Shown here piece after piece: positions 2,874 through 64,000 of a stretch of 64,000 nucleotides of DNA. A program made the translations under genes and the position numbers. Position 1 is the first letter of the stretch. Each line of letters starts with the position of its first letter. Under the pieces are notes generated by a model. It ran no database searches and had not been told where the DNA came from. It saw only the letters and a program-made list of their open reading frames with translations. The DNA lies in NCBI RefSeq assembly GCF_058153355.1, contig NZ_CM177019.1. The stretch is one strand, 5' to 3'.

Positions 2874-3177
2874 GATTGTGCTCCTTTTGAAAGATGTCAG
2901 TAAAATTAACACACGTTGTGAATGTTATGTGTCCGGTGATGCTTTTTTACGGCAATAATGCCTACTTGAATTTGTACAGATTTGTACTACACCCTTTTAA
3001 ATAAAGCGCCAACAAAAAACGTCAACTTGCAGAATATATTCTTCGCCAACATGCCATTAAGAAACATCAAGTTCCCGGCTTGCCAATTTATTAACGCCCA
3101 TTATAGTTATTCTTGCCCTCACAAAAATTTTCATCCGTAATTACCCCCAATAAAAGTCCATTCTGGAGACGCTTAAG

Positions 3178-5154
3178 ATGCAGCTTAATCATATTGTTAA
3201 AAGTCTGCTAATAACGGGATTATTCACCACCAGTTCTTTGCCACTCCTCGCGGCGGAAGCCCCTAAAGACGCCACCGCAGCCACGCAACAAGCAAACAAT
3301 TTACTCTACAACCAGTTGCCGTTTTCTGATAACACTGACTTTACTGATGCCCATAAAGGTTTTGTTGCCCCTATCCCTCAAGACGTGATTAAGGGCGAAA
3401 AAGGAAATGTTATCTGGGATCCACAACAATACGCTTTTATTAAAGAAGGTGATAAAGCCCCTGATACGGTGAATCCAAGTTTATGGCGTCAGGCGCAACT
3501 GATAAATATCAGCGGATTATTTGAAGTGACTGAAGGTGTCTATCAGATTCGTAACCTCGATTTATCAAATATGACCATCATTGAAGGCAAAGAGGGTATT
3601 ACCATCGTTGATCCCCTTGTTTCAGCAGAAAGAGCCAAAGTGGGTATGGATCTCTATTACAAAAATCGCGACAAAAAACCGGTAGTAGCGGTTATCTACA
3701 CACACAGTCATGTCGATCACTACGGTGGTGTTCGCGGCGTAATTGATGAAGCTGACGTTAAATCAGGCAAAGTTAAAATCTACGCGCCAGCCGGATTTTT
3801 GGAGGAAGCCGTTTCCGAAAATATTATGGCTGGCAATGTGATGAGCCGACGAGCCAGTTATATGTATGGCAACTTATTGAAACCTGATGTTAAAGGCCAG
3901 GTTGGCGCGGGACTGGGAACAACCACTTCAGCAGGAACGGTCACGTTGATTGCTCCTACTAACTACATCACCAAAACCGGACAAAAAGAAACTATTGACG
4001 GGTTGACCTATGATTTCTTGATGGCGCCAGGCTCTGAAGCACCTTCTGAAATGCTGTGGTTTATTGAAGAAAAGAAACTGATCGAAACCGCCGAAGATGT
4101 TACGCATACCCTTCATAACACCTATTCGCTGCGTGGGGCTAAAATTCGCCAACCGCTGCCGTGGTCAAAATATATTAACGAAGCTCTCAATTTATGGGGA
4201 GATAAAGCCGAGATTATTCTCGCTCAACATCACTGGCCAACCTGGGGCAACGATAACGTGGTCAAACTGCTTAAAAGCCAGCGTGATTTGTATCGTTACA
4301 TCAATGATCAAACTCTGCGTATGGCAAATCAAGGGATGACCCGTGATGAAATTGCCGCAAACTTTAAACTGCCCTCTTCACTGGCTAATACCTGGGCGAA
4401 TCGCGGCTATTACGGTTCGGTAAGTCATGACGTGAAAGCAACTTACGTGCTTTATCTCGGCTGGTTTGATGGTAACCCCGCGACGCTTGATGAACTGCCA
4501 CCAGAAGAAGGCGCAAAAAAATTCGTCGAGTATATGGGCGGTGCTGATGCCATTTTACAGAAAGCCAAACAAGATTATGACCAGGGTAATTTCCGCTGGG
4601 TTGCTCAGGTTGTAAGTAAGGTGGTGTTTGCGGATCCAAACAACCAGGCAGCGAGAAATCTGGAAGCTGATGCGCTTGAGCAGTTAGGCTATCAGGCTGA
4701 ATCTGGGCCGTGGCGTAATTTTTATCTCACAGGCGCACAGGAATTGCGTAATGGCGTACAAAAATTACCAACACCAAATACTGCCAGCCCTGACACCGTG
4801 CGTGCAATGACGCCAGAGATGTTCTTTGATTATCTTGCCGTCCATATTAATGGTGAGAAAGCGGCAGATGCCAAAGCTGTACTGAATTTCGATTTTGGTG
4901 AAGATGGCGGCACCTATAAAGTGGAGCTTGAAAATGGTGTTCTCAATCATACCGATGGTGTAAAGGCTTCGGATGCTGATGCCACTATCACTCTGTCTCG
5001 TGATGTATTGAACAAAATTGTACTAAAAGAAGAGACGCTGAAAGAAGCCACGGACAAAGGAGATGTCAAAATTACTGGCAATGCGGAAAAACTCAACGAG
5101 CTGTTAGGTTATATGGATAATTTTGAATTTTGGTTCAATATAGTGACACCATAA
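3178..5154 (+). CDS. secreted alkyl/aryl-sulfatase homologue (metallo-beta-lactamase fold, YjcS/SdsA1-like); accessory gene absent from K-12 at this locus
   Basis: 658 aa; N-terminal signal peptide (MQLNHIVKSLLITGLFTTSSLPLLAAEAP); metallo-beta-lactamase metal motif THSHVDHYGG; overall length and C-terminal region consistent with alkyl sulfatase dimerisation and SCP2-like domains; GGAGA RBS upstream. Confidence 0.8.
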   Translation: MQLNHIVKSLLITGLFTTSSLPLLAAEAPKDATAATQQANNLLYNQLPFSDNTDFTDAHKGFVAPIPQDVIKGEKGNVIWDPQQYAFIKEGDKAPDTVNPSLWRQAQLINISGLFEVTEGVYQIRNLDLSNMTIIEGKEGITIVDPLVSAERAKVGMDLYYKNRDKKPVVAVIYTHSHVDHYGGVRGVIDEADVKSGKVKIYAPAGFLEEAVSENIMAGNVMSRRASYMYGNLLKPDVKGQVGAGLGTTTSAGTVTLIAPTNYITKTGQKETIDGLTYDFLMAPGSEAPSEMLWFIEEKKLIETAEDVTHTLHNTYSLRGAKIRQPLPWSKYINEALNLWGDKAEIILAQHHWPTWGNDNVVKLLKSQRDLYRYINDQTLRMANQGMTRDEIAANFKLPSSLANTWANRGYYGSVSHDVKATYVLYLGWFDGNPATLDELPPEEGAKKFVEYMGGADAILQKAKQDYDQGNFRWVAQVVSKVVFADPNNQAARNLEADALEQLGYQAESGPWRNFYLTGAQELRNGVQKLPTPNTASPDTVRAMTPEMFFDYLAVHINGEKAADAKAVLNFDFGEDGGTYKVELENGVLNHTDGVKASDADATITLSRDVLNKIVLKEETLKEATDKGDVKITGNAEKLNELLGYMDNFEFWFNIVTP

Positions 5155-45222: not shown

Positions 45223-48200
45223 TTAACCGCTAATCTGTTCCATCGCCTGCAGAATACGCTTATCTGAAATCGGATAGGGTGTACCGAGTTGTTGGGCAAA
45301 ATAGCTGACGCGCAACTCCTCTATCATCCAGCGTATCTCTTTCACGTCTTCATCCTCACGACGTGCAGGCGGCAGTTTGTTGATCCATTGCTGCCACGCC
45401 TGCTGGACGTTTTCAACTTTCAGCATCTGAGCACGGTCACGGTGCGGGTCAACCGCCAGTTTTTCCAGACGCTTTTCAATCGCCTGCAAATAACGCAGCG
45501 TGTCGCCCAGGCGTTTGAAGCCATTACCAGTGACAAAACCGCGATACACCAGCCCACTCATCTGCGCTTTAATGTCAGAAAGCCCCAGCGCCATGGTCAT
45601 ATCCACCCGCCCTTTCAGGCGTTTGTTGATATTGAACACCGCTGTGAGGATTTGCTCGACCTGCTTCGCAATATCCACCACCGTGTCGTTCAGTTCAGCG
45701 CGCACTTTTTCATGCAACGCAGCAAAGCCTTCTTCCGTCCAGACCGGGCCGCCCGCCTCATCAATCAATTTATCAACACCGCAGGAGATGCAGTCGTCAA
45801 TAAGATCCAGCACTTTACCGTACGGGTTAAAGTAGAGACCCAGCTTTGCTTTATTCGGCAGTTTCTCATGCAGATATTTAATTGGCGACGGAATGTTCAG
45901 CAACAGCAAGCGACGCAAACCACGCCACATAGCCTGCTGTTGTTCCTGCGGGTTATCAAAAAGCTTAATCGCTACGCTGTCACGCTCATCCACCAGCGCA
46001 GGCCAGGCCTTCACTTTGTAGTTGCCACGTTTCTGCTCGTAGTGATCCGGTAAATTACCGAAGCTCCAGATATGTAACCCGCTTTGCTCAATACCATCAT
46101 CGGCAACGGCGGAAAGCGTTTCCTGCACTTTGCCTTTCAGGGCATCTTTCAGATCCTGTAATGAGCGCCCTTCTTTTAGCTTCTTATTTTTGTCGTCCAC
46201 CACGCGGAAGGTGATTTTCAGGTGATCAGGCACCTGATCCCAGTGCCAGTCTTCGCGGTCAACGGTAACGCCGGTCATCCGCCGTAGCTCGCGCTCAAGG
46301 CTGTCGAGCAACGGCAGTTCCAACGGCGTGACGCGACCTAAAAACGCTTCGGCGTAGTTTGGCGCGGGCACAAAATTACGCCGTACCGGTTTCGGCAACG
46401 ATTTGATTAGAGCAATCACCAGTTCACGGCGCAGGCCTGGGATCTGCCACTCAAACCCGCTTTCCTCAACCTGGTTAAGTAACGGCAGCGGAATATGCAC
46501 GGTCACACCGTCAGCATCCGCCCCCGGCTCAAACTGATAGCTTAAACGCAGCTTGAGATTGCCCTGATGCCAGAAGTTCGGGTAATCCAGCTTGCTGATT
46601 TTTTCCGCCCCTTCTTTGATCAACATGCTCTTTTCAAAGTTGAGCAAATCAGGTGTTTCGCGGCTGACTTTTTTCCACCAACTATCAAAGTGTCGTGCGG
46701 AAATCACATCGTGGCTGATGCGCTGGTCGTAAAACTCAAACAACGTTTCGTCATCCACCAGAATATCGCGGCGACGTGATTTGTGTTCCAGTTCTTCCAC
46801 TTCTGCCCGTAGTTTCAGGTTTTCACGGAAGAATGCGTGACGCGTCTGCCAGTCACCTTCCACCAGCGCGTGGCGAATAAAAAGTTCACGACACAGCGCA
46901 GGATCAATCTGGCTGTAGTTGACCTTACGCGCAGCAACAATCGGCAACCCGTAAACGGTGACTTTTTCAGTTGCCATCACCGCGCCCTGCGCCCGTTCCC
47001 AGTGCGGTTCGCTGTAGGAGCGTTTAATCAAATGCTGGGCAACTGGCTCTACCCATTCCGGATCGATGCGTGCCGCAATGCGCCCCCACAGGCGGCTGGT
47101 TTCTACCAGTTCCGCCACCATTGCCCATTTCGGCGGCTTCTTGAATAAACCAGAACCGGGGAAGATGGAGAAACGCGCGTTACGTGCGCCGGTATATTCC
47201 TGTTTATCGGCATCTTTCATGCCGATATGCGAAAGCAAACCTGTCAGTAAGGCGATGTGAATTTCGCGATACTCCGCCGGTTCGCTGTTAACCGGAATGC
47301 CAAGTTCTTTCACCACCTGGCGCAACTGGGTGTAGATATCCTGCCATTCGCGCACGCGCAGATAGTTAAGGTAATCGGTACGGCACAGGCGACGGAAGGC
47401 GTTTGAAGAGAGCGCCTTTTGCTGCTCGCCGAGATAATTCCACAGATTTACAAACGCCAGGAAGTCGGATTCTTTATCGTGAAAGCGACGATGTTTTTCG
47501 TCCGATGCCTGCTGCTTGTCCATTGGCCGCTCACGCGGGTCCTGAATAGAGAGCGCGGAAGTGATAATCATCGCCTCACGCACGCAGCCATGTTTCTGCG
47601 CTTCCAACACCATTCGCGCCAGACGAGGATCGACTGGCAGTTGCGAGAGCTGGCGACCGAGCGGCGTCAGTTTATAGGCGCTGGCCTGTTCATCAGTGGT
47701 GATCGCGCCCAGCTCTTCGAGCAGACGCACGCCATCCTGGATATTGCGTTTATCCGGCGCTTCTACAAACGGGAACGCAGCGATATCGCCCAGCCCCAGC
47801 GCGGTCATCTGCAAAATAACCGAGGCCAGGTTGGTACGCAGAATCTCCGGATCGGTAAATTCCGGGCGCGAGAGGAAATCGTCTTCGGAATAAAGACGAA
47901 TGCAGATCCCTTCTGACACACGACCACAGCGGCCTTTACGCTGATTAGCTGAAGCCTGCGAAATGGGCTCAATCGGCAGACGCTGTACTTTGGTGCGATA
48001 GCTGTAGCGGCTAATACGCGCCGTACCTGGGTCGATAACGTATTTAATCCCCGGCACGGTCAGCGACGTTTCCGCGACGTTAGTCGCCAGCACAATGCGC
48101 CGTCCGCTGTGCGACTGGAAGACGCGGTTCTGCTCGCTGTTCGAAAGCCGTGCATAAAGCGGAAGAATTTCCGTATGGCGTAAGTTCAGCTTGTTCAGCG

Positions 48201-49125
48201 CATCGGCGGTATCGCGAATTTCTCGCTCGCCGCTCATAAAAATCAGAATGTCGCCAGGGCTTTCCTGGCTCAGTTCATCTACGGCATCGAAAATCGCCTG
48301 CAACTGGTCGCGCTCGGTGTCATCAGCTTCTTCAACAATCGGGCGATAGCGCACCTCCACCGGATAGGTACGACCGGAGACTTCGATAATCGGCGCATTA
48401 TTAAAGTGGCGCGAAAAGCGTTCCGGGTCGATAGTCGCGGAAGTGATAATGATTTTTAGGTCAGGACGCCGCGGCAGTAACTCTTTCAAATAACCGAGGA
48501 GAAAATCGATATTCAGGCTGCGTTCGTGCGCTTCGTCAATAATGATGGTGTCGTACTGCATCAGCAGGCGGTCTTGCTGGAGCTCCGCCAGCAGGATACC
48601 GTCGGTCATCAGCTTGACCATCGTGTTATCACTTACGTGATCGCTGAAACGCACTTTATACCCGATGCAACCGCCCGGCTCCGTTTTCAGCTCTTCCGCA
48701 ATACGGTTCGCCACCGTTCGTGCCGCCAGACGACGCGGCTGGGTATGGCCGATCAGCCCTTTAATCCCGCGGCCCAGTTCCATACAGATTTTCGGTAGCT
48801 GAGTCGTTTTCCCGGAACCCGTTTCCCCGGCGACGATCACCACCTGGTGATCACGGATTGCTTCGAGAATGTCCTGCTTTTTCTGACTAACCGGCAAATT
48901 GTCTGGATAAGTGATTTCCGGTCGTACTGCTTCACGCAGCAGGACTTTCCCTGCCGCCTGGTCAATCTCTTTCGCCATCTCCTGGAAAATGGCCTGTTGT
49001 GCATCAGGATTTTTAACCTTCTTCACGCCGTGCAGACGGCGGGAAAAACGCAGTCTGTCACGCAGCATCAGCGAATCCAACCGTTGCTGCAAGGCCGTAA
49101 AGGTCAATTTTTGTTGTTCTGTCAT
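45223..49125 (-). CDS. hrpA: ATP-dependent RNA helicase HrpA (DEAH box)
   Basis: 1300 aa; Walker A GETGSGKTTQ, DEAH box IIIDEAHERS, helicase C-terminal and OB-fold regions. Confidence 0.95.
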   Translation of the reverse strand: MTEQQKLTFTALQQRLDSLMLRDRLRFSRRLHGVKKVKNPDAQQAIFQEMAKEIDQAAGKVLLREAVRPEITYPDNLPVSQKKQDILEAIRDHQVVIVAGETGSGKTTQLPKICMELGRGIKGLIGHTQPRRLAARTVANRIAEELKTEPGGCIGYKVRFSDHVSDNTMVKLMTDGILLAELQQDRLLMQYDTIIIDEAHERSLNIDFLLGYLKELLPRRPDLKIIITSATIDPERFSRHFNNAPIIEVSGRTYPVEVRYRPIVEEADDTERDQLQAIFDAVDELSQESPGDILIFMSGEREIRDTADALNKLNLRHTEILPLYARLSNSEQNRVFQSHSGRRIVLATNVAETSLTVPGIKYVIDPGTARISRYSYRTKVQRLPIEPISQASANQRKGRCGRVSEGICIRLYSEDDFLSRPEFTDPEILRTNLASVILQMTALGLGDIAAFPFVEAPDKRNIQDGVRLLEELGAITTDEQASAYKLTPLGRQLSQLPVDPRLARMVLEAQKHGCVREAMIITSALSIQDPRERPMDKQQASDEKHRRFHDKESDFLAFVNLWNYLGEQQKALSSNAFRRLCRTDYLNYLRVREWQDIYTQLRQVVKELGIPVNSEPAEYREIHIALLTGLLSHIGMKDADKQEYTGARNARFSIFPGSGLFKKPPKWAMVAELVETSRLWGRIAARIDPEWVEPVAQHLIKRSYSEPHWERAQGAVMATEKVTVYGLPIVAARKVNYSQIDPALCRELFIRHALVEGDWQTRHAFFRENLKLRAEVEELEHKSRRRDILVDDETLFEFYDQRISHDVISARHFDSWWKKVSRETPDLLNFEKSMLIKEGAEKISKLDYPNFWHQGNLKLRLSYQFEPGADADGVTVHIPLPLLNQVEESGFEWQIPGLRRELVIALIKSLPKPVRRNFVPAPNYAEAFLGRVTPLELPLLDSLERELRRMTGVTVDREDWHWDQVPDHLKITFRVVDDKNKKLKEGRSLQDLKDALKGKVQETLSAVADDGIEQSGLHIWSFGNLPDHYEQKRGNYKVKAWPALVDERDSVAIKLFDNPQEQQQAMWRGLRRLLLLNIPSPIKYLHEKLPNKAKLGLYFNPYGKVLDLIDDCISCGVDKLIDEAGGPVWTEEGFAALHEKVRAELNDTVVDIAKQVEQILTAVFNINKRLKGRVDMTMALGLSDIKAQMSGLVYRGFVTGNGFKRLGDTLRYLQAIEKRLEKLAVDPHRDRAQMLKVENVQQAWQQWINKLPPARREDEDVKEIRWMIEELRVSYFAQQLGTPYPISDKRILQAMEQISG

Positions 49126-49984: not shown

Positions 49985-52747
<2,763 letters not shown>

Positions 52748-56804: not shown

Positions 56805-57665
56805 TTATTCTCGCGAAATACCATCCAACGTAGACAACACGTCCGCAGAAAGATGCAATTTTTCTGCGGCCATATTCTCCCGTAAATGAGCAACAGAAGA
56901 CGTTCCTGGGATCAGCAAAATATTCGGTGAACGCTGTAAAAGCCACGCCAGCGCCACCTGCATTGGTGTCGCATTAAGGCTCGCAGCAACATCGGAAAGC
57001 GTGGAGGATTGCAGTGGCGTAAAGCCCCCGAGCGGGAAGAACGGCACGTAGGCAATACCATCGCGGGCCAAAGCATCAATCATTGCGTCATCAGCACGAT
57101 GAGCAATGTTGTATTCGTTCTGCACACAGACAATTTCGGTAATCTTACGCGCCTCTGCAACCTGCGTCGGTGTGACGTTGCTCAGGCCAATATGTTTTAC
57201 CAGGCCTTGTTGTCGCATCTCTGCCAGCACGGTCAGGCTGGCTTCAATCGATCCTTCCGCTGGGCCATGACCATCCCCCATCATAACGCGCAGGTTAACC
57301 ACATCCAGTACGTCCAGTCCGAGATTACGTAGATTATCGTGTACCGCTTTTTGCAACTCTGCCGGAGAAAATGCAGGCAACCAGGAGGCGTCCTCTCCAC
57401 GCCGCGCCCCAATTTTAGTAACAATGGTCAGGTCGTCAGAGTAAGGATAAAGCGCTTCGCGGATAATCTGATTGGTGACGTGTGGACCATAAAAGTCACT
57501 GGTATCAATGTGATTAACGCCTAATGCCAGCGCCTCGCGCAGCACGGTTATAGCGACGTGGCGATCCCTTGGGGGACCAAAAACTCCAGGACCTGCCAGT
57601 TGCATCGCGCCATAACCAAGACGGTTAACGGATTTTGTACCGAGAGTAAATGTGTTGCTGCTCAT
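56805..57665 (-). CDS. ydbC: aldo-keto reductase YdbC
   Basis: 286-aa AKR-fold ORF. Confidence 0.85.
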   Translation of the reverse strand: MSSNTFTLGTKSVNRLGYGAMQLAGPGVFGPPRDRHVAITVLREALALGVNHIDTSDFYGPHVTNQIIREALYPYSDDLTIVTKIGARRGEDASWLPAFSPAELQKAVHDNLRNLGLDVLDVVNLRVMMGDGHGPAEGSIEASLTVLAEMRQQGLVKHIGLSNVTPTQVAEARKITEIVCVQNEYNIAHRADDAMIDALARDGIAYVPFFPLGGFTPLQSSTLSDVAASLNATPMQVALAWLLQRSPNILLIPGTSSVAHLRENMAAEKLHLSADVLSTLDGISRE

Positions 57666-57796
57666 CGCACCCTGCCCTGTAATAAAACGGATTAAGAAAA
57701 ATCAGTATAGAAACGAAAAGAGTTAAATAATGCGAAGGCGTAAACAAGATTACTGGATGAGTTCCTCTATTGTCCTGAAAAACACCAAAACAAAAC

Positions 57797-57818
57797 GCGT
57801 CAAGCGCCGCATCCGGCA
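57797..57818. repeat. REP-like palindromic unit
   Basis: CAAGCGCCGCATCCGGCA motif between ydbC and ydbA. Confidence 0.45.
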
Positions 57819-57853
57819 ATAAAAAACCGCAACCTGTATCAGCGTTGCGGTTT
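57819..57853 (-). terminator. ydbA intrinsic terminator
   Basis: AACCGCAAC...GTTGCGGTT hairpin; on minus strand followed by a run of U. Confidence 0.65.
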
Positions 57854-57872
57854 ATGCATCACATACTAAAAA

Positions 57873-60800
57873 TTAGAACGTTTTCTTGAAGTTCAGCATC
57901 ACGCCTTTATCGCTGATACCATCCTCTTTCCAGTGGTAAGCATCCAGATTCAGCGAACTTTCTTTGCTGCTGTACTTCACGCCGACGCTTGCCAGACTGT
58001 TGATGCCGCCGCCCTTTTGCCCATCATCGACATTAAAGTGCTGGCTGCCTGCGCCTGCCAGGCTTGCCGTGCGCTGGCTCTTCGTGTAGCTCAGGTTCGG
58101 GCCGCCTTCCAGCGTGGCGTTCGCGCTCCAGCCGTCTTTGCCTGCGTAGTCCAGCTTCAGCCCGACGATACTGTCCACCGCCGTTTCGCTGCCGCTGTTC
58201 ATGCTCAGGTTAAAGTCTCCGGCATTACGCTCCTGATAACCGCCTTCCAGCGTGTGACGCAGTTTCACACCCGCATATGGCGTGATTTTCAGCCCTTCGC
58301 GCGGTTCAAAGGTTTTCGCCCCTTCGCTGCGGAACTCCAGGTACTGCTGTTTCACGTTGGTATCCGCCGTTTTGCTAACGTCGCCGTAAGCCACCGAACG
58401 GCTGCTGTCCAGTTGGTGAATATCGTAACGCAGCGCGTTATTCCAGCTCATACCGTTGTCAAAGGACATCTGATGCTTCAGGCCAAAGAACTGGCTGTAG
58501 CCGCCTGTAACACCATTATCACCCGCTTTCTGCGCACCATCGCCGTCCAGACGGGCGATACCGTACTCCAGGCTCATGGTCTGGTTTTCGCTCAGGTCGA
58601 GGGTTTTGCGCAGCGCCAGCATGTCGTACTCGGTATTATTCCCCAGCTCTGCACGCGGATCGCCTTTCGCCACCACGTTAAATGCCAGACCGTTGCCCAT
58701 CTTCGGTGCTGCGTCCGCCAACATGCTGAAGCGGTTACTCAACACGCGGGCCTCACGAAATACCGTGGTAGCCTGGCTCCCGCTGACTTGTTTCAGCGCG
58801 CTGTTCAGCTCTGCAGTGGTGCCAACGTTCAGACTGGTATACAGCTCGTTGTTGGTGTAACCCGCATCCAGCGCTTTTGCCACGTCATTCACTGAGGCAT
58901 CCGTCGCCACATCGGTGTAGGCGTTTTTGCTCATGGTCACGTCAACGTTGCCGCTGGCGTCGGTACTGCCTGTCGCCTGCCAGACAACAGATGTCGAAGT
59001 GATCGCTTGCGCATCAGTCAGGTTGCTGCCTTGCACCACATCATCAAAGCTGACGGTTTTGTCCGCCGTTCCCGCCGCAAAATCGGTGTTGATCTCCACG
59101 CCGTTCATACTGGCGTTATTGAGCATCAGCTTACCGGCGCTACCGTCGGCGTTCGTCCCCACCACGTAACCATTGAGGTTGTTCATGCCATCGTTGCGGC
59201 TAACGGAAGAAGAATGGGTGCCGTCGTATGGCGTAATGGTGGGTTCTTCCGGCGCGGTAAAGTCGACATAGTGCACTTCCGTACCGTCTCCGCCTTCGCC
59301 ACTACCCTCCATCGCCGTGCCAGATTGTTTAATTAATCCGGAACCATTCACGCTGTCGTCAATATAAACAGTGCCGTTGTTAACAATATGACCATTGCTC
59401 CCGAGCTTGCTGAAAGCCCAGGAGTTATTGGCGTAGATATTAATCGTACCGTTGTTTTCAACCACACCATCCGCTTTCGCGTCCGATGCTAATTGCATTC
59501 CAACCATACCTGTATGCGAAGTGCCTTCGCTACCAATATTGATAGTGCCATTGTTGACCATTTTTGCGCTGCCGTGCGCATTCATGGCGATGGTATTATT
59601 TTTATCAATATTGATAGTGCCATCGTTAATTGCCCGGCTACCGGCGTTATTATTTGGCGTCGTAACCTGGCCGTTAATCACACCTGTCGTACCGTTATAC
59701 AACGTATGCCCATTACCGCTGGTAGCGATATCAGCATCACCATTCACTGTACCCCAGTTGTTGAAATGCCCAGCCCAAAGTCCGTTATCAAGAAGATCGA
59801 CAACACCACCGACCAGGTTATTAAAGGTCGCGTTTTTATCAACCGAACCACTGTGAACCGTTCCTGCGTTATTGAAAGTGGCTGCGGCAGAAAAATTCAC
59901 TTTATTGACCGTTCCATCCGCTTCGTTATTCATCACGGCAGAAGCTGAGGCCCCTTTCCAGGCTGTTACCGTCCCGGCGTTATAAAACGTACTGGCCCAT
60001 TGTTCAACAGTGTTCATGGTGCCGGAATTGTTGATAACAGAACCCGCAACGGTTGTACCTACCAACCCGGTCACCGTACCTTCGTTAGTGAACACGCCGC
60101 CATCCACAGAAACGGTTTTTGTCGTGCCCTTATTGGTGTATTCCCCACCGGTTGCGATATCAACCTCATTAATACTGCCCGTGGTTTCATTGACCAAACG
60201 GCCAAAGTCAGCCACGGTGACAGGCCCCCCGGTAACCGTACCCGCGTTGGTTACCAGGGTTTCGGCGGTTGCCGTGATATCAGTCGTACCGCCATATGAA
60301 GACAGGTTAAGCGTTTCCCCGTCAGCCGAAATAATGTCACCATTTCTCCAGCTTAATGAAACAAACCCGTCAGTCGGGTTATAGGCGTTATTGTCCTGGC
60401 ATTTCCCAAAAGTACAGATGGTTCCGTAATTAACAATAGTCCCGCTGCCATCGTTATAGAACGCCTGCCCGTTTTCGGCATTGATATTGATGATGCCAGT
60501 CTGATCATTAATCGCAGTGGCACCATTGTAAACAGCCATGCCGACCAATTTATTTGGCCCCAGCGTATCATCATCATTTTCATTTACTTCCAGATTTATA
60601 GTTCCCTGGTTAATAATAATGTTACCTGGCTTCATCGCGGCCATACCGGCACCGGAATTATAGAGTGTTATTTCACCACCCTGCTGGTTAATGGCGGTAG
60701 AATTAACGCTGGCACCAGAACTGTCTGTACCCACAGCCATCCCGACAGCATAATCTTTGGCGCTGTCATGAGCGATATTGGACGCCAGACTGGAAGTATC

Positions 60801-63371
60801 GTTTTCATCAACCCATAATGCGTCAATGAAAATCTTACCCATATTGTCAATGGTTGAATTATTGGAGGCCAGCATGCCAACACTCCCCCGGCCGTACATT
60901 TGGATCTCACCGGCAGTATTATTTGAAGCGGTGCCATTGTTGCCTGCCGTCATCCCCGTCAGACTAATGACTTGATTATTAAAAATTAAAGGGTCACTCA
61001 AACCTTGAGCGTTCAGACTATTGAAAATACGTCCCTGCGCGAGTACCTTACTGGTGATGGCACTGTTATTAACAACTCGACCACCATAGACGCTCAAATA
61101 CGCAGAACTAGCAGAGTCTGATGTATTCCCCTCTACGCCGTAGATAGAAATCGTTACGTTGTTATTATTTACAGCTAGCGACTCTTCACCAGTAGCCCTG
61201 GCAAAGCCAATATTACCCAGTTCTACATCACCATTATTTATCATCTGCGAACCGGAATTCACCAGTACAACCTGTGATGTGTCACTATTATAATGATCAA
61301 ATGTATTTATATCTTTTAGGATAAAAGTGGCGTTGCGGCCAAGTTCTAAATGGGCTCGGTTATTCAGTTGAATGATATCGCCTAATCCAAGCGGAAAAAC
61401 ACCACTGATTGTTGAATCCCCATTTAGATACAGAGTAGAGTGCCCATCGATTTTGATAACAGGCGTATCGCCATAACCATTACGTTTTAAAGCAGGTGTG
61501 GAGCCATCCTGTAGAGTATTTTCTTCGCCAGCTAAATGGATACCACCATTAATTTCGACGGTATTACCGTCACCCGACACAACCAGACCATTAATATTTT
61601 CCTGGCTGCCATCCATTTCATTATAGATACGAGAAGTGACTTCACTGTCAGCAACAACGGTAAGATTGCCATTTAATACGATATTATTGTCGTGTCCCTG
61701 CACCTGAATGCCAACAGAAGGGGTAAAAAAGTCATTTATTGAATGCTCTCCGGCCTGATTTTTATCCACCAGAATATTACCGGTAATTTCAACTTCATTG
61801 CCATCACCGGCTACATTTACCCCTGTCGCAACACTGCCGGTCACATTAAGCTCATTTGTCGCCAGCGTCATGGCGTTATTATTTCCAGAGACATCCAGAC
61901 CGGTTGAATAATCCCCTACATCCACACGGCCAGCCAGAGAAATCAGACCATCATCTCCGATGATGCGAATCCCGGTACTGAAATTATCAGCAATGATGTC
62001 CCCCACATTGATAAGGGTAGAATGATTACCCTCAATCAGAATCCCTGTCGCATTGGCCTCTGAACTACCATTACTGACGGAAATATCCCCCCTGTTAATG
62101 AACGTCGACGCATCACCACTGAGAGAAACACCCTGCGAATTTTCATCCACGACCGTTATATTTCCTTTGTTGCTGACGATCGCGCCATTACCCTCAACAT
62201 CAATACCCCGTGCAGCATTGCTAACGTATAAATCCCCTTCCTGTATAACCGTCGCATTATTACCAACGATTTTGCTGCCCGTTGAATTTTGCCCATCAAC
62301 CGTCATATGTCCTTTATTATCGGTCCTGACATCATTACCGCTAATAACGGCCCCTATTCCGCCGTTATTGACAGTGGAGTCGCCAGTGTTATTTAAGATT
62401 GTACGATCGCCATTGACGATAACCGCCGTGCCAGCATCGACCACCGTCTGACCGTTATTATTGATGGTTATATTATCGCCGGTCAGGATACCGACCACCG
62501 AACCTTCACCGACAGCCTCTGTTTTACCCTCGTTTGTCAGCGCAATGTTGTTACCATTAATCATCATCACCGTGCCGCCATTCAGGGCCGTGTTACCGCC
62601 CTGGTCAGTGATAATCGCATCATTAACGGTAATTATTCTGCCCGTTGTTCCATCAGACACGACACTGGCTAACTGTGTGACGTGGAGTTTACCTTCGTCA
62701 TCGTAGCGCCATTCCATATCACCTGTGGTACTCACACCACTAAACATGGCGGTATGAGTCTCTTCATGGTTTTCCCACTCAGTCACAATGGTTTTTCGGC
62801 CATCTTTTGCCGTCAGCGTGTAGCTACCATCTTCATTTTGGGTATAAGTGAACGTCGCCCCGCGAATCTTCAGGGTTTGCGCGTCCTCGTCCCATGTCAC
62901 ATTGTTATCAAAGACAACGGGTTCTGTTCTCGGGGGGTCAACATCATCACCGCTATTGTCGGGTGGAGTAACATTACCGCCGTTATCTGGCTTTACAGGT
63001 ATACCTGAATCTTCATCACTGGGAACGGGTAGCGGTAGAGGGCCATTATCATCTGGCGGTATGGGCTGGGGAAAAGAAGAGTGAGCAGAATGATCATTGT
63101 CATGAGACAATTCAATCACTGCGAGTGTTGCCAGTACCGCCGTGGCACCTAATGCCAGTAACGAGCTGAAACCATTATTTGTAACAACAGCACATTTTTC
63201 TGGCACTGTTTTCAACTTCGTTGACGGTCGGGCGTGCCCTTCTGACTGACATGTCATTTGAGAGCTTCTGCGCATACTGTCTGCACTCTCGCCTTCTGTT
63301 ATTTCCGCCCCCCAGCTTTGGCCACTTAACGCTATAGCGATACACGCTGATAATAACGTTTTCTTTTGCAT
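57873..63371 (-). CDS. ydbA: large AIDA-I/Ag43-type autotransporter adhesin YdbA, apparently intact
   Basis: 1832-aa uninterrupted ORF; signal peptide MQKKTLLSACIAIALSGQSWGA; long Gly/Asn/Thr-rich passenger with degenerate beta-helix repeats; C-terminal beta-barrel ending ...LNFKKTF; no IS sequence inside. Confidence 0.85.
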   Translation of the reverse strand: MQKKTLLSACIAIALSGQSWGAEITEGESADSMRRSSQMTCQSEGHARPSTKLKTVPEKCAVVTNNGFSSLLALGATAVLATLAVIELSHDNDHSAHSSFPQPIPPDDNGPLPLPVPSDEDSGIPVKPDNGGNVTPPDNSGDDVDPPRTEPVVFDNNVTWDEDAQTLKIRGATFTYTQNEDGSYTLTAKDGRKTIVTEWENHEETHTAMFSGVSTTGDMEWRYDDEGKLHVTQLASVVSDGTTGRIITVNDAIITDQGGNTALNGGTVMMINGNNIALTNEGKTEAVGEGSVVGILTGDNITINNNGQTVVDAGTAVIVNGDRTILNNTGDSTVNNGGIGAVISGNDVRTDNKGHMTVDGQNSTGSKIVGNNATVIQEGDLYVSNAARGIDVEGNGAIVSNKGNITVVDENSQGVSLSGDASTFINRGDISVSNGSSEANATGILIEGNHSTLINVGDIIADNFSTGIRIIGDDGLISLAGRVDVGDYSTGLDVSGNNNAMTLATNELNVTGSVATGVNVAGDGNEVEITGNILVDKNQAGEHSINDFFTPSVGIQVQGHDNNIVLNGNLTVVADSEVTSRIYNEMDGSQENINGLVVSGDGNTVEINGGIHLAGEENTLQDGSTPALKRNGYGDTPVIKIDGHSTLYLNGDSTISGVFPLGLGDIIQLNNRAHLELGRNATFILKDINTFDHYNSDTSQVVLVNSGSQMINNGDVELGNIGFARATGEESLAVNNNNVTISIYGVEGNTSDSASSAYLSVYGGRVVNNSAITSKVLAQGRIFNSLNAQGLSDPLIFNNQVISLTGMTAGNNGTASNNTAGEIQMYGRGSVGMLASNNSTIDNMGKIFIDALWVDENDTSSLASNIAHDSAKDYAVGMAVGTDSSGASVNSTAINQQGGEITLYNSGAGMAAMKPGNIIINQGTINLEVNENDDDTLGPNKLVGMAVYNGATAINDQTGIININAENGQAFYNDGSGTIVNYGTICTFGKCQDNNAYNPTDGFVSLSWRNGDIISADGETLNLSSYGGTTDITATAETLVTNAGTVTGGPVTVADFGRLVNETTGSINEVDIATGGEYTNKGTTKTVSVDGGVFTNEGTVTGLVGTTVAGSVINNSGTMNTVEQWASTFYNAGTVTAWKGASASAVMNNEADGTVNKVNFSAAATFNNAGTVHSGSVDKNATFNNLVGGVVDLLDNGLWAGHFNNWGTVNGDADIATSGNGHTLYNGTTGVINGQVTTPNNNAGSRAINDGTINIDKNNTIAMNAHGSAKMVNNGTINIGSEGTSHTGMVGMQLASDAKADGVVENNGTINIYANNSWAFSKLGSNGHIVNNGTVYIDDSVNGSGLIKQSGTAMEGSGEGGDGTEVHYVDFTAPEEPTITPYDGTHSSSVSRNDGMNNLNGYVVGTNADGSAGKLMLNNASMNGVEINTDFAAGTADKTVSFDDVVQGSNLTDAQAITSTSVVWQATGSTDASGNVDVTMSKNAYTDVATDASVNDVAKALDAGYTNNELYTSLNVGTTAELNSALKQVSGSQATTVFREARVLSNRFSMLADAAPKMGNGLAFNVVAKGDPRAELGNNTEYDMLALRKTLDLSENQTMSLEYGIARLDGDGAQKAGDNGVTGGYSQFFGLKHQMSFDNGMSWNNALRYDIHQLDSSRSVAYGDVSKTADTNVKQQYLEFRSEGAKTFEPREGLKITPYAGVKLRHTLEGGYQERNAGDFNLSMNSGSETAVDSIVGLKLDYAGKDGWSANATLEGGPNLSYTKSQRTASLAGAGSQHFNVDDGQKGGGINSLASVGVKYSSKESSLNLDAYHWKEDGISDKGVMLNFKKTF

Positions 63372-64000
63372 GAGAAATCCTTTTCAATGAATGACATTTC
63401 AAATAATAAAATATGAGTAATAGATAAGAAATAGCCACAGGCTGTGTCATGATTTAATGCCTGCTCTTGAAATTTTATTTAGCAATCCCAGAACATTCAA
63501 CTTAATTAGTATTTCGAAACCTCAATGTAGACACATAAAAAACAAATTATTCGATTACTTAGGCTATTTGTTGCATTAATACACATCCTCTAACAATAAT
63601 CAGACAAAAAGCAATGTCAGCGTCAAATTGGGTAGCTGATTCATATTACTGACCACTCCGGAAATTCATTCATCGTGAAAATATTAACATTTCAACCATG
63701 TTCCATTTAATCAACCCACTGAAAATCTGGAGGTTATCTACTGCGGTTTGTTGTTGACTGCCCCTGACAGGTTTACCAGGCGTTGACAGAAGATGAGGCT
63801 TGCAAGATGCTAAAAACAATGTGGTGTTACAAGCAATCCCATAAACCTCGTAACTTCACTTAAATGAGCGATGCCGTCCATATTTGGGTTGACTATAAAA
63901 ACCCTTAATATTGAGGTTGATGATGATATTCATGATGGCATTGGAAAAATAGGACACCCATAAAATATCTATACAGCCTTTAAATTAAATCATTGAAATA

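Follow-up and report, generated by a model that had tools for sequence, protein, structure and literature searches.

On the minus strand of the window analyzed here (the whole 64,000-nucleotide stretch of contig NZ_CM177019.1 from RefSeq assembly GCF_058153355.1), we found a single long ORF that is very probably an intact ydbA orthologue at its usual chromosomal site, encoding a BigA/YdbA-family autotransporter of the monomeric type (type Va) that would be displayed as a surface adhesin in a minority E. coli lineage. The gene and its features are listed in Table 1.

The ydbA locus

The ORF has an ATG start and comprises 1832 codons plus a stop. It remains open from MQKKTLLSAC... through ...MLNFKKTF*, whereas stops abound in the plus-strand translation. 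By our own estimate, the chance odds for 1832 open codons are (61/64)^1832, or ~1e-38, in ~49% GC DNA, which is far beyond chance. The original prediction of an uninterrupted 1832-aa ydbA reading frame therefore holds, with the minus strand, unstated there, now assigned. The gene is preceded by ydbL and followed by pdxI-ydbD-ynbAB, matching the synteny of K-12 ydbA, and the proteins of the neighbour genes are 97-98% identical to their K-12 counterparts. Because of this position by pdxI-ydbD-ynbAB and the collinear homology to K-12 ydbA (b4492, a pseudogene in the same slot), we regard the gene as the ydbA orthologue. An Rfam search over positions 57000-64000 returned no match.

As had been anticipated, ydbA of K-12 is broken by IS elements into three annotated fragments, which are separated by IS2D and IS30C. 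When rejoined, the fragments give an in-frame product of 2020 aa, compared with the intact 1832 aa of the window. The N-terminal module, BigA_N, the sandwich and the barrel are common to both proteins; identity is 88% across the last 480 aa, but only 56% over aa 212-1832. Synonymous sites are saturated in the passenger (pS 0.74-0.90) but not in the barrel (pS 0.37). Moreover, tandem repeats of 98 aa are strong in K-12 ydbA and missing from the window gene, and the fea-tyn-paa island lies between ydbL and ydbA in K-12, whereas the two genes directly adjoin each other in the window.

Table 1. Features of the ydbA region, with nucleotide positions in the window and residue numbers in the 1832-aa protein
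Feature	Position	Strand	Basis
Weak terminator-like hairpin between ydbA stop and pdxI start	57793..57814	-	Consensus scan only; counts not above shuffles
ydbA CDS, BigA/YdbA-family type Va autotransporter (very probable)	57873..63371	-	ORF, domain matches, homologue alignments
12-strand beta-barrel translocator, aa 1580-1832, ending ...KKTF	57876..58634	-	PF03797, AF2, Foldseek
Alpha-helical linker, aa 1485-1579	58635..58919	-	AF2 secondary structure, low confidence
BigA_beta sandwich domain, aa 1401-1484	58920..59171	-	Pfam PF25783, E 3.3e-26; strands in AF2
Gly/Asn/Thr-rich beta-helical passenger, aa 233-1400, with close Cys pair C986/C991	59172..62675	-	AF2, periodicity, composition
G6 homopolymer, ORF nt 3142-3147, codons 1048-1049	60225..60230	-	Genome comparison
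BigA_N small beta-barrel domain, aa 152-232	62676..62918	-	Pfam PF25784, E 1.4e-25; AF2 pLDDT about 90
Linker rich in Asp/His and, further on, in Pro/Asp, aa 89-151 (P 24%, D 17.5%)	62919..63107	-	Sequence, alignment
Helix-like hydrophobic stretch rich in Gly, Ala, Thr and Leu, aa 68-88 (FSSLLALGATAVLATLAVIEL), G75 invariant	63108..63170	-	Sequence, alignment
Two-cysteine loop C41...C60	63192..63251	-	C41 and C60 unchanged across 16 family members
Putative signal peptide of Sec type, about aa 1-21 (MQKK / TLLSACIAIALS / GQSWG-AE)	63309..63371	-	Inspection, family conservation
AT-rich ydbL-ydbA intergenic spacer, to window end	63372..64000	-	34% GC; full length 646 bp in related genomes
Shine-Dalgarno-like AAGGA, 6 nt ahead of ATG	63378..63382	-	Sequence

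Domain architecture of the protein

A C-terminal beta-barrel ending in Phe had been predicted, and it was confirmed by a PF03797 match (E 5.4e-19; 69.4 bits versus a cutoff of 26) that was seen only when the C-terminal 325 aa were scanned alone, the full-length Pfam scan having missed the barrel. The AF2 model of this region, which is of low confidence (mean pLDDT 55), has 12 long strands following a helix, and the 15 best Foldseek matches to it in the PDB are the type Va translocators AaaA, EstA, EspP, NalP and BrkA (E 3e-7 to 9e-5). Directly ahead of the barrel strands, AF2 predicts at low confidence a pore-spanning helix (aa 1536-1553, TTVFREARVLSNRFSMLA). The window protein shares with these five autotransporters PF03797, a 12-strand barrel after a helix and the C-terminal Phe, and hence has both the translocator and the helical linker through the barrel pore with a terminal aromatic residue that are expected of a type Va protein. 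At the sequence level, PDB searches with the C-terminal 475 aa and with the N-terminal 1357 aa gave no match, solved type Va translocators included. In contrast to these solved systems, the window protein has a non-enzymatic beta-helix as its passenger and the additional domains BigA_N and BigA_beta.

These two domains, named by Pfam after BigA and YdbA, flank the long beta-helix in the arrangement by which the BigA/YdbA family is recognized. Salmonella BigA (NCBIfam NF033178, 'autotransporter adhesin BigA') has the same overall architecture and length class, shares BigA_N and BigA_beta, and carries the same module of signal peptide, Cys loop, hydrophobic helix and PPDDGGD linker. The auto_BigA profile aligns over aa 441-1832 of the window protein with 986.4 bits; since the curated cutoff is 3400 (NF033178, exception-level), we consider the window protein a homologue and not BigA itself. 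The barrel of BigA has been grouped with NalP-type barrels by Celik et al. 2012 (PMC3419190).

The Gly/Asn/Thr-rich composition predicted for the passenger is present (G 14.2%, N 13.2% and T 9.7% over aa 236-1360), and the beta-helix portion is roughly 1150 aa long. Its rungs appear as regular short strands in the AF2 model of aa 236-330 (pLDDT 82-93). The internal degenerate repeats that had been proposed are only weakly borne out: a 24/49-aa periodicity in aa 235-700 could be recovered (z about 6.5-6.8 versus shuffles), but neither DNA tandem repeats (Tandem Repeats Finder) nor self-BLAST matches were detected. The suggestion of a pertactin-like passenger was not supported, as three passenger segments gave no local Pfam match at E up to 10, and no AIDA, pertactin or PATR repeat of the AIDA-I or pertactin type was found. 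A 99%-identical homologue is annotated with Pfam BigA_3rd and BigA_4th, and our local Pfam copy is silent on the window passenger. Foldseek matches of the N-terminal AF2 model to Ag43 and pectate lyases were not significant (E > 0.2); they are weak given 150 disordered residues and a generic solenoid. The cysteines of the protein form close pairs, C41/C60 and C986/C991. Closely spaced Cys pairs are compatible with autotransporter translocation across the outer membrane.

Following the established type Va pathway, the 188-kDa acidic precursor would be exported via Sec under the direction of its signal peptide, BAM would insert the 12-strand barrel into the outer membrane, and the passenger would exit C-terminus first and fold as a long beta-helical stalk. 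The BigA_beta sandwich would then form the base of the stalk, with the BigA_N barrel, the Pro-rich linker and the hydrophobic helix at its distal end. Set against this account are the passenger without an adhesin Pfam match in the local library, the lack of a solved relative by sequence, the low confidence of the C-terminal model, and a hydrophobic helix that stands outside the standard pathway.

The N-terminal helix and alternative readings

The putative signal peptide, conserved in the family, consists of a KK n-region, a 12-aa core that is hydrophobic by calculation and a c-region of small residues, its cleavage site having been placed by eye. It contains LSAC (aa 7-10), which we considered as a lipobox of the NalP/SphB1 type. 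This reading was rejected, since several family members lack the Cys, which lies only 9 residues from the N-terminus; unlike NalP, the window protein has no conserved lipobox whose Cys would close a signal peptide of full length. Further downstream, the short hydrophobic stretch proposed to follow the signal peptide is indeed found (SLLALGATAVLATLAVIEL, aa 70-88). The linker behind it (aa 89-151) corresponds, in short and degenerate form, to the PPDDGGDxTP decapeptide arrays of other alleles. The conserved helix is not accounted for by the standard autotransporter pathway, and no explanation for it or for the variable proline tether was found in the literature searched. AF2 gave no confident model of the helix and placed it nowhere (pLDDT < 50), so its docking into the BigA_N barrel is unsupported.

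One reading is that the family carries an undescribed N-terminal passenger-tip module, possibly inserting into membranes or oligomerising through helix-helix contact. The proposed module begins with a disulfide loop and a hydrophobic helix resembling a glycine zipper, to which are added a patch of Asp and His and a PPDDGGD proline tether of stepwise variable length. We consider such a module unlikely, and it is likewise doubtful that the window helix on its tether would act as a membrane-inserting or self-associating element by analogy with VacA, the Helicobacter pylori toxin, in which case the protein would be membrane-active or anchored in a target membrane rather than a simple receptor-binding adhesin. 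The family alignments, of 10-16 sequences only, favor this idea in that the helix, C41, C60 and G75 are kept in 16 of 16 aligned members from several genera. In addition, the BigA-like clade shows a clear glycine zipper (GxxxGxxxAxxxGxxxG), E. coli YdbA retains a small-xxx-small face, and VacA illustrates that an autotransporter passenger is able to carry such a segment (PMC4926140). However, the window helix has a single Gly and no G-containing zipper triplet. The N-terminal GXXXG region of VacA has no homology to the window segment, which is without tandem GXXXG; the VacA region starts the mature toxin, whereas the window helix is preceded by about 45 residues forming the disulfide loop and followed by the Pro-rich tether. 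The likeness to VacA is an analogy and serves as a lead rather than a test. The same stretch could also be read as an inner-membrane anchor, with the protein spanning the periplasm or retained in the inner membrane instead of being a true surface autotransporter. The succession of hydrophobic helix and Pro-rich spacer resembles that in periplasm-spanning proteins of the TonB type, and a crude Hessa-scale sum of about -0.3 kcal/mol makes the window segment borderline membrane-competent. This reading is extremely improbable: other members score +0.4 to +3.7, and the 20 residues after the helix contain 0-1 K/R and 2-8 D/E in all members, contrary to the positive-inside rule. Moreover, a spanning helix would, after signal-peptide cleavage, strand the remainder of the protein in the cytoplasm, which cannot be reconciled with the outer-membrane barrel confirmed at the C-terminus. 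A stop-transfer anchor was therefore rejected on topology and flanking charge, and the shortage of K/R after the helix also counts in favor of the tip reading.

Two further alternatives concern the gene rather than the helix. In the closest complete genome, a G7 instead of G6 at ORF nt 3142 splits the gene in two; disrupted copies occur in K-12 and other strains, and many representatives are truncated. The window ORF might accordingly be a decaying pseudogene still open by chance, or an assembly artefact at the homopolymer, but we consider this very unlikely. Two independent intact homologues align without frame breaks, the 1830-aa protein end to end with a single 2-aa gap and the 1832-aa protein without gaps, which excludes the hidden frameshift that would have undermined the original prediction. 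Furthermore, the start of the ORF is conserved among homologues, and the 90% cluster contains many 1829-1832-aa members on multiple contigs. The dN/dS values of 0.05-0.18, well below 1 in every region divergent enough to measure, indicate at the sequence level that ydbA is a maintained gene. A maintained gene may still be phenotypically silent, that is, a cryptic gene under H-NS-type repression and inert under ordinary conditions. We regard this as a genuine possibility, though somewhat below even probability; it concerns regulation and is compatible with the autotransporter account. The AT-richness predicted for the region upstream of the ORF is consistent with it (34% GC over the 629 bp to the window end, versus 49% for the ORF), although this stretch, which had been called a leader, is the ydbL-ydbA intergenic spacer. 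Promoter and terminator scans gave counts equal to those of shuffles, which, for the promoter-like sites, also fits silence. In K-12, the paaY/ydbA spacer is among the H-NS-associated 'promoter islands' (PMC3661553), and the ydbA transcript is raised in an rpoZ mutant (PMC5811629); however, the window and K-12 spacers are unrelated, without sequence similarity, so these data are not transferable. Besides, an H-NS consensus motif scan of the window spacer showed no local enrichment, and purifying selection implies that cells produce the protein frequently enough for it to be of consequence.

Distribution, role and significance of ydbA

Intact ydbA is already known, as 99%-identical proteins are annotated in databases; the rarity implied earlier was overstated, since public E. 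coli data abound in intact YdbA proteins of 1860-1960 aa. The allele class with the 34%-GC upstream spacer was found in 17 of 5426 complete genomes. Identity to relatives along the gene changes from 100% to 67% and then to 93-97%; judging by this pattern, the allele is a recombinational mosaic. A single-protein scan of species representatives yielded only six loci, none of them close (best 61%).

The most likely role of this autotransporter would be that of an adhesin or aggregation factor exposed on the surface and variable as an antigen, whose passenger may be swapped between lineages by recombination. The putative adhesin function follows the naming of the family: in the literature found, the role of BigA is an annotation only, functional experiments on YdbA or BigA were absent from the searchable literature beyond incidental mentions, and neither protein appears in a 2022 review devoted to functionally characterised autotransporters. 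If the tip module were real, the family would comprise tethered, membrane-active 'harpoon' adhesins and not plain beta-helix adhesins, with possible insertion either into a target membrane or into the outer membrane of the cell itself, and among the variants the window allele would have the most hydrophobic helix on the shortest tether.

As a gene call, the finding changes little, because many genomes already have an intact ydbA annotated, and its pseudogene state in K-12 is a peculiarity of a laboratory strain. The strong allelic divergence and passenger mosaicism suggest a surface antigen under diversifying exchange, which is relevant to strain typing and host interaction. In practical terms, the window gene is a clean full-length template, short and without repeats or IS elements, which suits the first functional test of this widespread, uncharacterised autotransporter of the Enterobacteriaceae.

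An uninterrupted ydbA orthologue

The interval 57873..63371 (-) holds a single ORF of 1832 aa with an ATG start, whose frame is open from MQKKTLLSACIAIALSGQSWGAE... through ...GVMLNFKKTF*; the opposite (+) reading is full of stop codons. The ORF listing and translation of both strands agree with the coordinates and length of the original prediction, which had named no strand. Downstream lie pdxI, ydbD, ynbA, and ynbB, whose proteins are 97-98% identical to those of K-12, and ydbL, ynbE, and ydbH stand upstream in related genomes. In K-12, this slot is occupied by ydbA, which is indeed IS-broken as predicted: it is annotated in three fragments with IS2D and IS30C between them, and the rejoined fragments encode a 2020-aa product in frame. 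The window gene is therefore the ydbA orthologue, and the analysis bears out that it encodes an intact YdbA autotransporter. The NCBIfam 'autotransporter adhesin BigA' model covers aa 441-1832 with 986 bits, under its curated cutoff of 3400 bits; therefore, the protein is a homologue of BigA, and BigA itself was ruled out. Nearby, aa 1-371 and aa 467-585 of K-12 YnbC match two separate stretches at 51294-52747 (-), with ~95 residues absent and separate 376-aa and 103-aa ORFs in place of one 585-aa gene, so that ynbC looks disrupted.

The gene is uninterrupted, as had been claimed. The intact 1830-aa protein of strain EC42405 aligns end to end with 95% identity and a single 2-aa gap, and an 1832-aa database protein, whose gene is also set in a ydbH-ynbE-ydbL / pdxI-ydbD context, aligns gap-free (1807/1832 identities); no hidden frameshift was found in either alignment. 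Strain 2020CK-00188, the nearest complete genome (locus L001; 98.3% nucleotide identity), has its ydbA divided into two CDS by one additional G (G7, L001 6809-6816, versus G6 in the window). This G could be a real frameshift, possibly due to slipped-strand switching, or a sequencing error in the homopolymer.

The unbroken state of ydbA is not unusual. In a protein search, full-length YdbA clusters labelled E. coli (1860-1960 aa) numbered in the hundreds; several are found on many contigs, and one has 1619 members. The exact window sequence is absent from the protein collection; a 113-member 90% cluster has a representative 99% identical to it and contains many 1829-1832-aa proteins annotated 'autotransporter domain-containing protein'. 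Intact YdbA of this kind is thus not new and has been annotated before.

Domain architecture and the N-terminal module

Features of window ydbA and of its product (nt, window positions; aa, protein positions)
Feature	Position	Strand	Remarks
Shine-Dalgarno-like element	6 nt upstream of the ATG	-	AAGGA, from sequence
G6 tract	60225-60230 (ORF nt 3142)	-	G7 in closest complete genome
Signal peptide	~aa 1-21		
Loop	between C41 and C60		after signal peptide
Hydrophobic stretch	aa 68-88		
Asp/His patch, then Pro/Asp-rich linker	up to aa 151		P 24%, D 17.5%
BigA_N barrel	aa 152-232		Pfam, E 1.4e-25, full-length scan
Beta-helix	~1150 aa, after BigA_N		G 14%, N 13%, T 10%
BigA_beta sandwich	aa 1401-1484		Pfam, E 3.3e-26, full-length scan
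Helical linker	between BigA_beta sandwich and barrel		
C-terminal barrel	within last 325 aa		PF03797, E 5.4e-19, 69 bits vs cutoff 26

The predicted autotransporter beta-domain was matched by PF03797 only when the last 325 aa were scanned by themselves; with all 1832 aa as query, hmmscan missed it at E <= 0.01, so that domain scans of long proteins with biased composition are to be read with care. With a 16-sequence alignment, AF2 gave a confident model of aa 152-330 (pLDDT ~90), in which a small barrel leads into regular rungs of short strands, and left aa 1-150 unmodelled (pLDDT < 50). The model of the last 480 aa was weak (mean pLDDT 55) and contained, besides the sandwich, twelve long strands and three helices, of which the last spans aa 1536-1553; its best fifteen Foldseek PDB matches were all type Va translocators (E 3e-7 to 9e-5), namely AaaA, EstA, EspP, NalP, and BrkA. 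A PDB sequence search found no relative with a solved structure. A terminal Phe is part of the usual outer-membrane-protein signature and ends both window YdbA and E. coli YdbA. Some BigA-like members (P0136, P0152, and P0172) terminate in ...KKTFR, with Arg beyond this Phe.

The internal degenerate repeats proposed for the passenger are only weakly present: aa 235-700 have a periodicity of 24/49 aa (z ~6.5-6.8), but the gene contains no DNA tandem repeats and self-BLAST gave no matches, unlike K-12 YdbA with its strong 98-aa tandem repeats. Passenger segments matched no family in the local Pfam library, so that 'pertactin-like' fails as a family assignment and describes the passenger at the fold level.

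Alignment of 16 family members from several genera revealed a conserved N-terminal plan of signal peptide, Cys loop, helix, Asn/Asp/His patch, decapeptide repeats, and BigA_N barrel. Both Cys of the CPxx...LPxxC loop are invariant, and the helix comprises 19-20 uncharged, Gly/Ala-rich residues with one invariant Gly (G75 in the window). The predicted hydrophobic stretch was found here, at aa 70-88. The helix of the BigA-like clade forms a textbook glycine zipper (GxxxGxxxAxxxGxxxG), whereas in E. coli YdbA the small-xxx-small face alone remains. By a crude hydrophobicity sum, the window helix is borderline (-0.3) and other members are positive; the following 20 residues contain 0-1 K/R and 2-8 D/E in every aligned member. 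The first 300 aa have only 43 matching representatives among 1.84 billion (E < 1e-3), all of which look like the BigA/YdbA family or its fragments.

A stop-transfer anchor is topologically implausible for this helix because the C-terminal outer-membrane barrel is confirmed, and a lipobox reading of the signal-peptide Cys was rejected, as this Cys is not conserved as a lipobox across the family. To our knowledge, VacA is the sole precedent for such a hydrophobic segment on an autotransporter passenger. The N-terminal GXXXG region of VacA forms membrane channels (PMC4926140). By this analogy it is conceivable, though improbable, that the YdbA helix would be membrane-active or self-associating.

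Other E. coli alleles carry ~3 to >20 PPDDGGDxTP-type decapeptides, whose copy number makes YdbA length classes step by 10 aa (1862, 1871, 1881 ... 1961); the array in the tether is a coding VNTR. The window counterpart at 62919-63107 is a short linker with only a degenerate remnant. Perfect PPDDGGDTPV-type arrays were seen in the N-terminal 100-300 aa of P0005, P0007, P0008, P0040, P0067, and P0137. The helix-and-tether module as a whole is conserved in the family.

Mosaicism, rarity, and the upstream spacer

Compared with EC42405, the first 2.7 kb of window ydbA and the upstream spacer are 100% identical, ORF nt 3300-3900 fall to 67% identity, and the remainder returns to 93-97%; in the 3' end, L001 and the related locus L002 are mutually 100% identical, where the window reaches only 93-97%. 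This succession of identities is that of a recombinational mosaic. Between K-12 and the window, synonymous sites are saturated in the passenger (pS 0.74-0.90; barrel pS 0.37). Wherever divergence permits an estimate, dN/dS is 0.05-0.18; purifying selection has thus preserved the coding sequence while passenger cassettes are exchanged.

Among 5426 complete E. coli genomes, at least 80% of the locus is covered in just 17, and most genomes share the 3' barrel part only (82-89% identity); the upstream spacer is present in exactly those 17, even at blastn sensitivity. Thus, the allele class is rare among complete E. coli genomes. hrpA (45223-49125) is 98.5% identical to 18 genomes and 90-95% to ~5400 other E. 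coli, whereas nearly all genomes match the 24-kb stretch 16000-40000 with 95-99% identity (best 98.2%). Locally raised divergence would account for this difference, as would the import of a block beside ydbA. Taken together, allele class, spacer, and these identities place the source in a minority E. coli lineage with no close complete genome. Among species-representative genomes, only distant relatives were detected, the best in Escherichia sp. E1V33 (61%) and others in Pseudocitrobacter, Yokenella, and Chimaeribacter.

The 629 bp from the ydbA start to the window end are AT-rich as predicted (34% GC) and constitute the ydbL-ydbA intergenic spacer (646 bp in related genomes); to call them a 'leader' or 'silenced' is conjecture. 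Promoter-like and terminator-like matches did not exceed shuffles, no Rfam family matched the region, and an H-NS consensus scan of the spacer was uninformative. In K-12, the fea-tyn-paa island (~20 kb), which is missing in the window's lineage, parts ydbL from ydbA. The K-12 paaY-ydbA spacer is listed among H-NS-linked promoter islands (PMC3661553), and altered RNAP binding in an rpoZ mutant is reported for K-12 (PMC5811629); the window spacer has no similarity to the K-12 spacer, so these observations are not transferable. The ydbL-ynbE-ydbH genes (AsmA-like YdbH system) adjoin the spacer in this lineage, just past 64000 (L001 10620-13772; related locus L010 1-1354).

Possible function

Celik et al. 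(2012, PMC3419190) ascribe to BigA a passenger resembling AIDA-I and a barrel of the NalP type, and bigA is termed an adhesin gene by annotation in Salmonella papers (PMC8011750). Both BigA and YdbA are absent from a review published in 2022 on autotransporters of characterised function (PMC9289746), and our literature search found no functional study of YdbA; an adhesin role is thus inferred at the level of the family. Low dN/dS together with passenger exchange is what would be expected if YdbA were a functional surface protein with variable antigens. What stays noteworthy is that the allele is rare and mosaic, that it differs from its nearest relative in a homopolymer, and that the family has a conserved N-terminal helix-and-tether module.
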